Translations under genes and position numbers: made by a program
Part shown: piece after piece, positions 7,105-57,296 of the stretch
How the letters are laid out: each line of letters starts with the position of its first letter
Position numbering within the stretch: position 1 is the stretch's first letter
Source: Octopus vulgaris
Taxonomy: Eukaryota
Direction of reading: 5' to 3'
DNA: 64,000 bases
NCBI GenBank assembly: GCA_951406725.2
Contig: OX597827.1
Span: 45,570,001-45,634,000 of the forward strand
The notes under the pieces: generated by a model
What the model was told of the DNA's origin: nothing
Database searches by the model: none
The model's input: only the letters and a program-made list of their open reading frames with translations

Positions 7105-7165
7105 TGCAGCGACATCAGTGAGACATTCCAACAGTTGTTACTTTGCTGCAGCATCAACAGGCATC
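7105..7165. other. Conserved non-coding element, copy 1 (GCAGCGACA... reads on +)
   Basis: TGCAGCGACATCAGTGAGACATTCCAACAGTTGTTAC...GCATCAACAGGCATC; GAGAC/GTCTC-closed hairpin at 7120-7175. Function unknown. Confidence 0.7.
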
Positions 7166-8348
7166 AAAGCGTCTCGTAGCCCCGACCCCAAATAATTGAT
7201 GAGGGATGAGGGGAGCCCACATCCTTTGTGTATCTCTTCCTGTTTTCCTAATGTTCCTTCATTATCATCATAATGTTCCACCTTTTACAATTAACAATAA
7301 TGAAATCTACTATTAACAACAAAGAGATTTATTATTATTAGCTGATATTATTATCAACTGATACTTGTTCTATCGATCCCGAAAGAATGAAGTGCGTGTA
7401 TGTATATACAGATACAATACCAATATTCACAGAACTTTTTAATAATTCCTTCTGGAAACTATCTTTAACATTTTCTTGAGAATGTATATATATGTTGTAA
7501 TCTTTTGTGCCTAATATTTTAATGAACTTGTTAAACTTTTTTATGTTCTTAACATGTTCTTGTAACCAAAGAATGTATATATATATATTGTAGCATTTTG
7601 TGACAACCAATAATTAATAAAACCAAACTGTTACATGTTAATTTTGACAATCTTTTACCTTTCAGAAAAAGATTGTCAAAAGTAACATGTAACAGTTTGG
7701 TTTTATTAATTATATATATTTATTTATTATTTATTTATTTATTATATATATATATATATATATATATATATATAGTCAAGCAATATATTTGATTATGGCA
7801 TAAGACTAACCAGAAAATCTGAATGCTATTAGACAAGACTGACAATCCGTCAGGCATGCTGGTGGGAAGAGCATGACCTCTGTAGCACTGGGGGTACATA
7901 GACTCTATTGGTTCGATGATGACAGAAGAATAGAACGAAATTTGGTGTAAAATACTATTGGGCAGAAAGGAAACGTTATTTCCCATGGATTGGTGTTTGC
8001 CAGGTGTGAATTGTGTAAGCTGTACTTGTATCGTTCTCCAGTTATAAAACGGATATGACCACGTTACTAATACAAACTTGTGCTCTTGAGTGCAACGTCC
8101 GATTAACTCACTTTATCGAGTTCAGAAAAGTGCTGGATCATATGAATTTTTAATGATTCCCTTTAGCACAAAGGATATAATAACATTAAACCGATCGAAT
8201 GATTCAAATCTACCATCCACTGTATTATTATTATTATTATTATTATTATTATTATTATTATTATTATTATTATTATTATTATTATTATTATCATCATCAT
8301 CATCATCATCGTTATCATCATCATCATTATTATTATCATTATGATTAT

Positions 8349-9170
8349 TATTACCTCTGATTTAGTGAAGACAGGGGTATTGTTTTTAGTCGTATTTGTT
8401 TGTTTGCCCATGGACAAGATATCTCAAGAACCGCCAGATGGATTCGAATGAAACTTTCAGGAATGTTTCGCCTTGTGACTGGCATGAACTGATTAGATTT
8501 GGGGATTGATCCAGTACCGAACAAGGATTATGGATTATTTGTTATATTTACTTTACATGAAGTATTACGGCCTTACGTTGACTTTCAGGTCTTTCTCTCA
8601 TTATCTCCTTTGAAAGCACGCTCATGATTTCCACGTAAGTTATGGTGGCGTTGCTGTTTCCAAAGTTTTATTTTCGTTTCTCTATTATTAATTTTACTCG
8701 CGTCTCTATCTTAGTAGAAACTGTTGGATAAAGAAACCAAACTGCAAAAACAACCGACAGCAAAACCATTCAGAAATTAAATAATACTTTAATATTCAGT
8801 AACAATAATAAATTTAATTTATCCTCGACAATTTTCAGTTTTACTAATTTTGAATATATCGCTCCTGTTTAAAACCTCTTGCCTACCTGACAATTGCATT
8901 TCTAGCTCTGCCTTGAAGGAAGCATTACTTCTTGGACTGACGTTTTTTTTTTGCGCAACGATGTTGTTAAACCTCCGTTAACAGCACAGTATGCAGGTCC
9001 TTTCCGTTTTCTTTCATGCATGGATAAATTTTTCACTATAAAACTTAGTGGTTATAATGACGCTATATCAGTGGATGAATTAAAAAAAGGCCTTCATTGA
9101 GAAAACTGTCCCTCCTCCCACTGCAGACGATGCACACAAGCATTAGAAACACGGCCCGCACGCCCACCAT
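8349..9170 (+). mobile_element. Helentron-associated (HINE/DINE-1-like) non-autonomous element, 3'-truncated
   Basis: 5' TACCTCYG..CAGRGG hairpin/subTIR followed by (TTTG)n. The matching 3' end GGCGGAGGTTTGCGCTC...GAATGCTCTTGTT is in the 31207-32491 copy. Other partial copies at 11881-12340 and ~17875-18423. Confidence 0.55.
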
Positions 9171-9409
9171 CATAAGCCACCACCATCAACACAGCCACCA
9201 CCGCCACCATCAACACAGCAACCAACGCCACACTCAACACAACCTCCACCACCACCCACAACACAGTCACCATCGCCACCCTCAATACAACCACAACCAC
9301 CAACGCCACCATCAGCACAAACACCACTGCCGCCACCATCGTCATGCCATCACAACCACACCCCACCATCCTCATCATCATCTACTCCCCACCACCACCA
9401 CTACCACCA

Positions 9410-9641
9410 TACCTATTTCTTTACTACCTACAAGGGGCTAAACACAGAGCGGACAAACAAAGACAGACAAACGGATGTAGTCGATTATATCGACACCAGT
9501 GGGTAACTGGTACTTAATTCATCGACCCCAAAAGGATAAAGGCAAAGTCGACCTCGGCGAAATTTGAACTCAGAACGTAACGGCAGACGAAATACGGCTA
9601 CGCTTTCGTCCGGCGTGCTAAAGTTTCAGCCAGCTCGCCGC
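9410..9641 (-). mobile_element. SINE family B (MetaSINE-like)
   Basis: Reverse complement of 59367-59600. Duplicate at ~12535-12770. Confidence 0.75.
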
Positions 9642-10502
9642 CATACCGTCGCCACAACTGCCACTGCAGCTACCATCAGCCCCGCCATAATCACACTACC
9701 ACCATCACGACCTTCACCACTGCTACAGCTACTAAAAACAGCCAGTATAGCCAACATTACCACCACCACCACCTCCACCACCACCACCACCACCACCACC
9801 ACCACCGTCACCGAGCCGCCGTGCCACCACCACCACTAAAAATACAACCACCACAACTACCATTATTACTAGCACCAACACTACCACTACCACCACAATC
9901 CCCACCACCATCACCATCACCACAACAACCACCATCAGCACTGCTACTACTACCATCACTCTTAGCGTCACGATTACCTACTACACCATCACCACAACCA
10001 CTACCACTACCACCACCACTAAGTTACTCACAACTATTGTTATAAGTACAACTATCACCATCACCACAGCTAACTCTAATAGTACCACTTGGTGTACAAC
10101 TACTACCAATACTATAGCCATCACAAGTGTTAGCTTTACTACCACCATCACTACCACAGTCACCACCAATACTTTTACCGACATCAGTAACTTTACAACA
10201 TTCTCTGACACTACACCCACCCTCACCCCACCCCCACAATTCCACGACACAACAACTACCACCACCACTACAACCCTCAGCCCTATACACACACATACCC
10301 ACACCACCTCATTCAACAAATACAACTATAAACAGAAGCAACAAACAGTCACGGATATATACAGACAGACACGCCCTCCATCTTCACCACCATGGCCACA
10401 ATATATTCACTAAACCTCAATCAAACGATCCACCACCCTCGCCCACCACCGACTAATCTACACCCCTCCCCTCTATCAAGCATCATCGATTTCAATCTAC
10501 AT

Positions 10503-55156: not shown

Positions 55157-55210
55157 TGCAGCGACACCAGTGAGACATTCCAATACTTGTTGCTTGCATC
55201 AACAAGTATT
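55157..55210. other. Conserved non-coding element, copy 12 (old/diverged, + orientation)
   Basis: TGCAGCGACACCAGTGAGACATTCCAATACTTGTTGCTTGCATCAACAAGTATT; perfect 11-bp stem AATACTTGTTG/CAACAAGTATT. Confidence 0.7.
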
Positions 55211-55945
55211 TATTTAATCCTCCTGCACATCATGTCTGCCGTTAGATGAAATGAAACATATAAAAATTGCTTTTTATCTTCTTTTTTATCGTTTATATTT
55301 TTTTCAGTCATTGGACTGCGGCCATGCTGAAGCACCGACATCAAGGATTTTTAGTCGAACGAATCGACGACTCCCCAACTCGTGCAGTATTTAATTTTTT
55401 TTTTTTTTCTTTTTTAAGCCTGTTACTTTTATTCTATCATATCAGTCTGTTTTGTTGAATCGTTAAGGCACGGGGCGGGGTGGGCTAATGCAGTTTCGCA
55501 CCTTTGAAAAATGCATTTTTTTAAAAAGTTTTCTTCAAAGTTGGAGATTACGAATATGAAAAAAAAAAATTAAGCCCCCCCCCCCTACTCACCCCTCCCA
55601 TTTAAAGTTTTGAACTTTTCCGAAATTTTTTCCCCCTATGTTTTAGATGACGGAGAATCTGGATATGCAAGGTACTAAGTTTTGAAAATTTATTTCAATA
55701 AGCATATAGATAGGTATATAAGGTAGATAGATAGATAGATAGATAGATAGATAGATAGATAGATAGATAGATAGATAGATAGATAGATAGATAGATACAA
55801 ATGGTGGTCTTCCTGGGCTAAAAACAATAGTAACACCGTCTTCTATAGGACCGCCACATTCAGTTGGCAAATATATTTTATGAATAAACGGATAAATAGA
55901 TAGACAGACAAATAAATAAAAAAATCGCCAACGATACACACGCGG

Positions 55946-56858
55946 TCATATATATATATATATATATATATATATATATATATATATAAAACTGTAGTTG
56001 TGTGAGTGTCTGTCCCCTTCGATTTAGATTCCTAACTACTCCCACATTTTGCGGTGCAGTTTAACCAAATTCGGGTATCTTATAGTCGTGATTCATATCG
56101 AGCCCGTCTGGGTATTAGCGCGCGTCTACGATGAGTCTACGATTTAAAAAATAATTTAACATCATTTTTTTCCATTTTAACGCATATTTTTTTAATTGGC
56201 GGCGGAGTTGGCGTCCATGCTCACACCTGCACCTGTGTTGCTTCTCCCTCTTCTTCCCTCCCTCGTGAAGCTGTGGGGAAGGGAGTGTAAGGAAACCAAC
56301 GTCGTAAAGCGTTGTCAAGGAGACCAGCGTTCTTTTAGAACAACGACTTCATGGCTTGAAGTCGCCAAAACAGAAATCGCTAAAAAAGCTGAAACAGATC
56401 CACAAAAACGGCAAAAACCGCCACACAGGGCAGGTTTCCTAATGTTTTAGTTGTTGCACAAATCTTTATATATAAAAGTGAAGTTGTGTGTCTGTCTCCT
56501 ACGATTTAGATTCCTAACTACTCCCACATTTTGCGGTGCAGTTTAACCAAAACCGGGTATCTTATAGTCGTGATTCATATCGAGCCCTTCTGGGTATTAG
56601 CGCGCGTCTACGATGAGTCTACGATTTAAAAAAAATTTACCATAATTTTTTCCATTTTAATGCATTTTTTCGCTATTATGTAAGGGAAGTAACTCTCTAA
56701 GAATGTCTACGATGAGTTAACGATTAAAAAAAATAATTACCATCATTTTTTATTCCATTTTTAATGCTTTTTTTGCTATTTTTTTGCTATAACACACTAA
56801 AAATGCTTATATAGTTATTTCCCTTACAAACCCGAGCAACGCCGGGTGATACTGCTCG
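55946..56858 (+). mobile_element. Composite non-autonomous Helitron with a duplicated 5' segment (second start at 56463)
   Basis: ~190 bp after TATATAAAA are repeated at ~55985 and ~56470. 3' end CCCGAGCAACGCCGGG...CTCG (degenerate CTAG). The first start is uncertain within the TA tract. Confidence 0.65.
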
Positions 56859-57239
56859 TATATATATATATATATATATATATATATATAGTGGAGCTGG
56901 AATCATTCTAATTAATTCACTGGAATTCAGCCCCTTTTCATCAGATAGAAAACGGGGGTAAGAAGAGCCTTACACGTTAGTTTCTTTCTATCGCTCAAAT
57001 GAAAGCACCTGCACTCACTGCATCTTGGCGCCTTTGAACTTTTTCCCATGTCTTCTTAGACCTAACTGTTGGCAAGAAAGAGAGAAAGTGAAAGGTAGAG
57101 AGAGAGAGAGAGAGAGAGAGAGAGAGAGAGAGAGAGAGAGAGAGAAGTGAGGAAGAGAGGGAGAGAGAGAGAAGTGAGGAAGAGAGGGAGAGAGAAGAAT
57201 GGTGGATGATAGAGAAGAGAGAGAGAGCGTGCATTGTTT

Positions 57240-57296
57240 GATACTTGTTGATGCAGCAAGCAACATGTATTGGAATGTGTCTCTGATGTCGCTGCA
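57240..57296. other. Conserved non-coding element, copy 13 (old/diverged, - orientation)
   Basis: GATACTTGTTGATGCAGCAAGCAACATGTATTGGAATGTGTCTCTGATGTCGCTGCA; extended hairpin ~57224-57284. Confidence 0.7.

Follow-up and report, generated by a model that had tools for sequence, protein, structure and literature searches.

The clustered protocadherin exons of vertebrates are each preceded by a conserved sequence element, and MHC class II has its SXY module. The locus described here resembles these systems in having a fixed-spacing block at each cluster member while the flanks have diverged. It differs from them in that no coding exon lies beside the copies, their orientation is mixed, and the factors are putative. 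Paralogous conserved non-coding clusters normally have a recognisable gene beside each copy, whereas here there is none in 64 kb. C2H2 zinc-finger proteins, a further class of candidate readers, have expanded in cephalopods.

A precedent for a lineage-restricted C2H2 tethering motif comes from ctenophores, in which the CTEP1/2 motifs contain a CpG, are lineage-restricted, and are read by lineage-specific zinc-finger proteins (PMC12221973). The likeness, the CpG included, is one of description only, and the ctenophore motifs number thousands genome-wide, compared with a few contigs per genome for the present element. In the literature, judged partly by title, we found no earlier account of this motif or of a comparable cluster.

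The window (the whole 64-kb stretch of DNA analysed) carries 13 copies of the element within ~50 kb of gene-free DNA, in both orientations (Table 1). The 36-nt pattern GCAGCGACAYCAG-N4-ACATTCCA-N5-TGYTRC matched the window 13 times with no mismatch and did not match any of 100 shuffles, even when three mismatches were allowed. An nhmmer profile recovered the same 13 copies, each with an E value of 4.7e-15 or better, and no 14th copy was found in the window, where nothing further appeared below E 0.43. Both searches agree with the places given in the original prediction, whose minus-strand numbers are low ends; the second spacer, which it gave as N4, is N5. It had also assigned nine copies to recent duplications, which holds for the eight young ones. 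The ninth, 35449, is an older paralogue, its upstream flank being about three-quarters identical as judged by eye.

Table 1. Element copies in the window, with the position of the first G of GCAGCGACA in each
Class	Span	Strand	First G	Parts
young copy	6956..7165	+	7106	C-rich arm 6956-7105, core 7106-7142, 3' block ends 7165, loop 9 nt
young copy	10354..10560	+	10504	arm, core 10504-10540 with one substitution at +32, 3' block, loop 6 nt
young copy	13461..13670	+	13611	arm, core 13611-13647, 3' block, loop 9 nt
young inverted copy	16694..16900	-	16750	arm 16751-16900, core 16714-16750, 3' block ends 16694
young copy	18968..19174	+	19118	arm, core 19118-19154, 3' block
young copy	22301..22507	+	22451	arm, core 22451-22487, 3' block; duplication start ~22276
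young copy	28827..29033	+	28977	arm, core 28977-29013, 3' block; duplication start ~28796
intermediate-age paralogue	35405..35599	-	35449	arm 35450-35599, core 35413-35449 intact, 3' block deleted
young-lineage copy	36179..36387	-	36237	arm, core 36201-36237, 3' block, loop 8 nt
old copy	39877..40078	-	39928	arm 39929-40078, core 39892-39928, 3' block, loop 1 nt; perfect 10-bp palindromic arms
old copy	51539..51741	-	51591	arm, core 51555-51591, 3' block, loop 2 nt
old copy	55008..55210	+	55158	arm 55008-55157, core 55158-55194, 3' block; orthologous contigs in organisms C and E
old copy	57240..57445	-	57295	arm 57296-57445, core 57259-57295, 3' block, loop 5 nt

The core of the element spans 37 bp and holds ~55 bits. 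Across five old lineages, 27 of its 37 positions are invariant, compared with 28 of the 127 gap-free columns upstream (Fisher p=2e-8, an optimistic value, since the same copies served to define the core). This agrees with the earlier claim that the four copies with barely alignable flanks keep the invariant blocks. Among the eight young copies, variation touches 4 of 82 sites at -25..+57 versus 53 of 260 flanking sites (p=5.6e-4), and 2 of 37 in the 37-bp block alone (p=0.025). No indel occurs in the core of any of the 13 copies, whereas the adjoining loop takes 1-9 nt, which agrees with the claim that indels are confined to one loop. This loop, which precedes the 3' block, measures 1, 2, 2, 5, 6, 8, or 9 nt. 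The N4 and N5 spacers differ between copies in lineage-specific ways, and 13 of the 14 ACATTCCA octamers in the window lie inside the element. The organism E orthologue has no differences in the 43 nt from the second core base onward versus five in the other 148 nt, one of the five being the first core base; these differences are too few to show constraint. Our comparisons support the earlier view of a locally amplified, non-coding family under selection; the core varies less than the flanks in old and young copies alike.

The original prediction gave the element ~55-80 nt and missed a C-rich, G-poor arm that reaches ~150-170 nt upstream from the core in all 13 copies. Because this arm of ~150 nt precedes every core, the unit measures ~200-230 bp. 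The arm consists of 0.37-0.41 C and 0.05-0.11 G in all 13 copies; an absolute skew of 0.6 is reached by 3.5% of 604 non-microsatellite 150-nt windows. It is weakly alignable, with an identity between copies of 0.51-0.67 compared with 0.53-0.60 after shuffling. Its outer edge is sharp, near -150, and the arm is retained even in duplications that begin only ~175-180 nt upstream. A TATA box, poly(A) signal, or T-run common to the copies was not found.

Contigs of four organisms carry the element; conservation is seen in close relatives only, and presence in organisms D and G rests on small shares of sequencing runs. No RNA data set was listed among the carriers, which says nothing about expression. 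Records matching a 291-bp stretch at 80% likeness number at most 16, 37, 17, and 7 per run, out of 11.6-35.8 million; these counts come from contigs, in which copies are merged, and from a search whose filter removes some records. Such low numbers per genome indicate that the element is not a dispersed repeat, and the high genome-wide copy number expected of a dispersed transposable element was not seen in the contig records of the four organisms, as the original prediction had anticipated. It had also described TIRs, TSDs, and Pol III boxes as lacking. In the six copies tested, no TIR or TSD exceeded 7 nt and none was shared. A B box was found in none of the 13 copies; an A-box-like match appeared in 4 of them, at positions that differ from copy to copy. 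ARAGORN reported no tRNA, and the cloverleaf of a tRNA or tRNA-derived SINE was not detected. An old transposon or duplication decaying neutrally, its core alike by chance or through gene conversion, would suit a window rich in transposable elements and duplications, and the C-rich arm could then be a decayed simple repeat. We nevertheless consider this very unlikely, given the sharp step in conservation to flanks near shuffled identity, the missing TIR, TSD, and B box, and the few contigs per run that match the 291-bp stretch; moreover, conversion would erase the lineage-specific differences seen in N4 and N5.

Our tentative interpretation, to which we give somewhat less than an even chance, is that the 13 copies represent a locally duplicated, low-copy cis-regulatory module of ~200-230 bp with a putative fixed-spacing protein footprint. 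The gap-free 37-bp core is nearly invariant most likely because it acts as DNA, and judging from the sequence, a long protein-binding site would fit such a fixed-spacing core better than a structured small RNA. The footprint could belong to an enhancer, promoter, or chromatin-anchor module. It may be read by a cooperative complex, in which case a TEAD-type CATTCCA would be flanked by two related half-sites in inverted orientation, RFX-like on the 3' side. Alternatively, the reader might be a single long C2H2 zinc-finger array, proposed because 37 bp would correspond to ~12 fingers. The C-rich arm would supply looser accessory sites, and the 3' GYATCAAC block, which is lost in 35449 and variable in spacing, might be an optional extra half-site. 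New copies arose through local segmental duplication and inversion. The target gene is presumed to be located outside the window; inside it, a Pfam scan of 252 ORFs of at least 55 aa recognised none, and this lack of a nearby target also speaks against the module. Paralogous enhancers usually keep less than near-invariance over 27 bp; the conservation seen here exceeds that level and counts against the module interpretation.

CATTCCA is present in all 13 copies and corresponds exactly to the MCAT/GT-IIC site of TEAD, which has a CATTCCA/T core (PMC6628201). This candidate site accounts for only 7-8 of the 27 invariant bases. On the opposite strand, an RGYAAC half-site likewise occurs in 13 of 13 copies. 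The sole core substitution in copy 10504 moves this half-site by 3 bp and does not remove it, and RGYAAC is common, with 111 occurrences in the window. The likeness to the RFX X-box lies in the half-site and in an imperfect palindrome with a variable spacer. In contrast, the full X-box (RYYNYY-N1-3-RRNRAC or RTNRCC-N1-3-RGYAAC), in its degenerate and strict forms, matched none of the 13 copies on either strand (PMC2375033). Both the TEAD and RFX motif names were chosen after the sequence was seen. The element would matter less if it is an ordinary TEAD/RFX enhancer that was duplicated. Its wider interest lies in a 55-bit core kept in at least five old lineages and still duplicating under constraint, which might serve as bait if it is the target of an expanded C2H2 zinc-finger protein, or as a handle on an unknown small-RNA class.

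Several other readings of the core as DNA were weighed. CTCF-like motifs have been reported at cephalopod TAD borders (PMC9023564), and the cluster could be regarded as a tandem array of directional CTCF sites acting as insulators or loop anchors. Scored with a fly rather than a cephalopod matrix (PMC1904468 Table S2), the element is similarly a long directional site with a partial fit to the 3' part: on its opposite strand, 9 of the 11 final columns show the base that is commonest or next-commonest in the matrix, and among 127,966 positions the sites take ranks 17-279. This identity nevertheless seems highly improbable. The 13 copies reach p values of 3.7e-5 to 1.4e-3, short of the cut-off in that paper whether it is read as log10 or as a natural log; a T stands in all 13 where the matrix has 0/30; the variable N4 coincides with the matrix 5' columns; and two further invariant blocks, ACATTCCA and TGTTRCT, are left unexplained. 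A dedicated array, still expanding and lineage-private, unlike CTCF, is an unlikely alternative. Its core would be bound by a long C2H2 protein specific to the lineage, or would act as external promoter for short-RNA genes of a class not yet described, and the cluster would amount to a code for regulation or chromatin architecture. A more specific proposal, that the core serves as an external promoter of snRNA type (SNAPc/PSE-like) from which each copy makes a short transcript, the G-rich strand of its arm, agrees with the promoter-like fixed spacing, with the sharp arm edge near -150, and with the arm's presence in all 13 copies, and the core has what we take to be a loose resemblance to nematode and insect PSEs. 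The literature yielded no mollusc PSE sequence for comparison. We consider this proposal distinctly unlikely, as the arm sequence is barely conserved relative to shuffled sequence and there is no snRNA match and no common TATA box or terminator.

The main rival to the module interpretation, though a somewhat unlikely one, is a non-coding RNA gene or small non-coding exon whose blocks act by sequence, as a guide or pairing partner, and not by fold. The extreme invariance of the primary sequence would also suit an RNA that pairs with a partner, and ACATTCCA would presumably be a miR-1 8-mer target site if it lay in an RNA. On the strand on which the element is read here, the arm could provide an acceptor together with its branch point and pyrimidine tract, and a weak donor would follow the 3' block; in 5 of 6 lineages NTRAY does occur 50-60 nt upstream, and a pyrimidine tract and AG come after it. 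However, four lineages would have AAG as their acceptor and young copies would have a GC donor, mixed orientation argues against a single host transcript, and copy 35449 kept its core without the 3' stem and donor. Two overlapping inverted repeats could give alternative stems (86-92% of cells paired). In the 3' stem, four independent one-sided changes yield G-U when the opposite strand is read, against one that does not; as a weak RNA hint, the 3' palindrome of the young copies pairs 8/10 on the opposite strand versus 5-6/10. Compensatory pairs, in contrast, number zero in either stem among 8-9 sequences, a test of low power because most paired columns never vary. Folding reached z <= -2 on both strands only in 39928 and 55158, of nine copies folded, and depended on the window used for folding. 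The structured small RNA offered as one option by the original prediction thus gained no positive support from covariation, folding, or Rfam: Rfam 15 gave no family at gathering score in the window, an E-value search of 35000-57500 placed none on a copy among 150 of 189 matches listed, and focused searches of two copies gave a best E of 1.6-3. Instead of a ~60-nt microRNA hairpin with both arms conserved, we found a stem of only 10-12 bp that is stable in two of the nine copies folded, and the most conserved block lies outside it. Extended pre-miRNA hairpins common to the copies were found on neither strand, and no match to the element appeared in the portion of the octopus miRNA paper's supplements covered. 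A short protein-coding exon is the least credible reading, and the original prediction likewise held coding to be unlikely. In all five lineages certain frames run through the core without a stop, but the 10 core positions that vary split 2, 5, 3 when taken modulo 3 and most of them alter the amino acid, fourfold positions stay fixed, loop lengths are 1, 2, 5, 6, 8, and 9, and both strands are used. Variable sites did not cluster at third positions, and the indels did not preserve a frame. The Pfam scan, which covered ORFs of at least 55 aa that were not rich in simple repeat, gave no hit at cut-off and eight sub-threshold ones in six ORFs.

By eye, hammerhead and HDV ribozymes, snoRNA boxes, and SL RNA did not fit, nor did p53, DMRT, Helitron/Helentron ends, or recombinase sites. 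Six young-lineage copies are preceded by Thr-rich or Gly-Cys-rich reading frames, which lack codon-position bias (15, 12, 10 variable sites) and were treated as a decayed ACC repeat. An 18-base pattern matched 35 metagenome sequences and one viral sequence, none with the full core and all in contigs of 46-67% GC, which we took as chance; a 21-base pattern had one match in prokaryotic genomes.

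A 36-nt gap-free pattern, GCAGCGACAYCAG-N4-ACATTCCA-N5-TGYTRC, matched the window exactly 13 times and was found 0 times in 100 dinucleotide shuffles of it. A profile search recovered the identical 13 copies and no weaker additional one, confirming the copy coordinates of the original prediction; the second spacer, claimed there as N4, is 5 nt long. Eight copies lie in young duplications, four (39928, 51591, 55158, and 57295, named by the first core G) are old, and copy 35449, previously also counted as recent, is of intermediate age. The family is real, constrained, and undescribed, and falls among conserved non-coding elements that occur as clustered paralogues. 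The literature searched (PMC13652810 and PMC9699675 among it) does not describe the motif, which may be catalogued in subscription journals, MirGeneDB, or repeat libraries, outside that search.

Each unit comprises an arm, a core, and a loop with a 3' block. The arm is ~150 nt long and precedes the core; its composition is C 0.37-0.41 and G 0.05-0.11 in all 13 copies, a skew as strong being present in 3.5% of non-microsatellite windows (n = 604); between lineages it aligns weakly, with short islands in common. Because every copy has an arm, the unit measures about 200-230 bp; the ~55-80 nt originally assigned to it omitted the arm. The 37-bp core contains no indels across 13 copies and is followed by a loop of 1-9 nt and a GYATCAAC block, deleted in copy 35449. 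Its dyad symmetry is imperfect, with a TGCAGCGACA-like 10-mer at the 5' end and an inverted copy at the 3' end; the 10-mer recurs a third time as the 3' block.

In a comparison of five old lineages, the core is invariant at 27 of its 37 columns and gap-free upstream sequence at 28 of 127, with core boundaries picked on the same data. Core pairwise identity is 0.76-0.95, and distant flanks are near shuffled values. The eight young copies differ at 4 of 82 sites in and near the core and at 53 of 260 flanking sites (p = 5.6e-4), which suggests that constraint persists once a copy has been duplicated. An alternative cause of this low variation may be gene conversion. The greater constancy of the core in both comparisons agrees with the proposed selection on the family.

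Words of one young copy were found in 17 sequencing runs (organisms A-G, as coded, and one metagenome). Contigs from four of the 24 listed runs (X1, X6, X12, and X16) were aligned to copy 55158 at 80% likeness, and 16, 37, 17, and 7 of 17.8, 35.8, 35.2, and 11.6 million were placed, part of them on the low-complexity stretch 55041-55094. The element is thus of low genomic abundance and, as anticipated, not a genome-wide dispersed repeat. In 4/4 organisms the contigs peaked over approximately 55152-55210 only and had loose ends to the left and right, indicating paralogues whose flanks differ. Dividing summed depth by that of a single contig gives an estimate of some 10, 25, 12, and 4 copies per organism among the matches listed, a ratio that is not a copy number, and contigs collapse copies. 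Orthologous contigs over the arm and core of 55158 carried 6 differences in 224 nt (organism C) and 7 differences plus one gap in 191 nt (organism E); C and E must then be close relatives, and conservation is demonstrated at that range. Organism A has at least one paralogue with a flank absent from the window, and T replaces the first core G in some contigs. Further paralogues outside the window occur in the four aligned runs, one with a different 3' block, and the 3' flank of one organism F contig resembles copy 51591 by eye. Matches in metagenome and viral contigs, none of which has the complete core, are probably coincidental.

The conserved property of the core is base identity with exact spacing in either orientation, as protein footprints on DNA demand. 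We infer a function at the DNA level, with putative proteins and target: the core would be bound by a fixed-geometry complex or one long zinc-finger array, and we tentatively favor a duplicated cis-regulatory module. Zinc fingers have expanded in cephalopods. We presume a likeness of the element to protocadherin and MHC II modules, and of its core to a miR-1 target and a PSE; an snRNA-type promoter seems improbable. All 13 cores contain a TEAD MCAT site (PMC6628201) and an RFX-type half-site, and none of the 13 a full X-box (PMC2375033). Lineage-specific C2H2 tethering motifs (PMC12221973) offer a comparison system. CTCF-like motifs have been reported from the borders of cephalopod TADs (PMC9023564). 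A CTCF array is very improbable, the core fitting the fly matrix (PMC1904468, Table S2) only weakly.

The original prediction had left structured RNA and a long binding site side by side; fixed spacing fits the latter better, and we tentatively prefer it. A non-coding RNA or exon, the main alternative, is rather unlikely. Two mutually exclusive stems are possible, with 0 compensatory pairs in both, a comparison of low power as most paired columns are invariant. The 3' stem has five one-sided transitions, and four of them would pair as G-U if the opposite strand were transcribed, which speaks weakly for RNA. In the young lineage this stem is decaying, and 35449 has lost it; the core persists. 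Of nine copies folded, only 39928 and 55158 clearly outdid their shuffled versions on either strand, splice-site-like features are present without conserved canonical form, and the element matched no known RNA family in Rfam and no tRNA. A SINE head or TIR element was ruled out for the copies tested. A neutral relic is less probable than an snRNA-type promoter, and a coding exon least probable of all: variable sites are not enriched at third codon positions, indels in the loop shift the frame, and 0/252 scanned ORFs reached the Pfam cut-off, which upholds the non-coding assignment. By appearance the window is intergenic or intronic, and we presume its repeats to resemble TE families.

Other features of the window
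Feature	Coordinates	Observation
SINE-like repeat, ~300-420 bp	2860-3170, 13990-14410, 34510-34930, 36765-37180, 39325-39755, 61720-62135, others	abundant; copies 72-90% identical; not related to element
Possible hAT transposon remnant	5709-6014	weak dimerisation-domain match, E 0.005, below cut-off
Six ~130-nt segments in decayed ACC repeats	6620-6750, 10020-10150, 13130-13260, 17090-17220, 18660-18790, 36590-36720	upstream of young-lineage copies; Thr-rich on one strand, Gly/Cys-rich on other; codon-position bias not found (n = 6)
Sole substitution in otherwise invariant block (13 copies)	10532-10537	restores RFX-like half-site 3 bp off; may be chance
Presumed rearranged Penelope-type retroelement	24037-26993	two long ORFs, one per strand: 321 aa at 24040-25002 (minus) and 355 aa at 25602-26666 (plus); no Pfam match for either, no PDB match for 355 aa; 414-bp inverted repeat, 99% (25203-25616 / 26580-26993)
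ORF fragments	37782-38494, 29745-30206	no Pfam match; presumably resemble non-LTR retrotransposon proteins
Near-perfect inverted repeat	50431-50571	outer stem 57 bp, -116 kcal/mol, z -21.7; attracts sub-threshold Rfam miRNA matches; probably a MITE or foldback remnant
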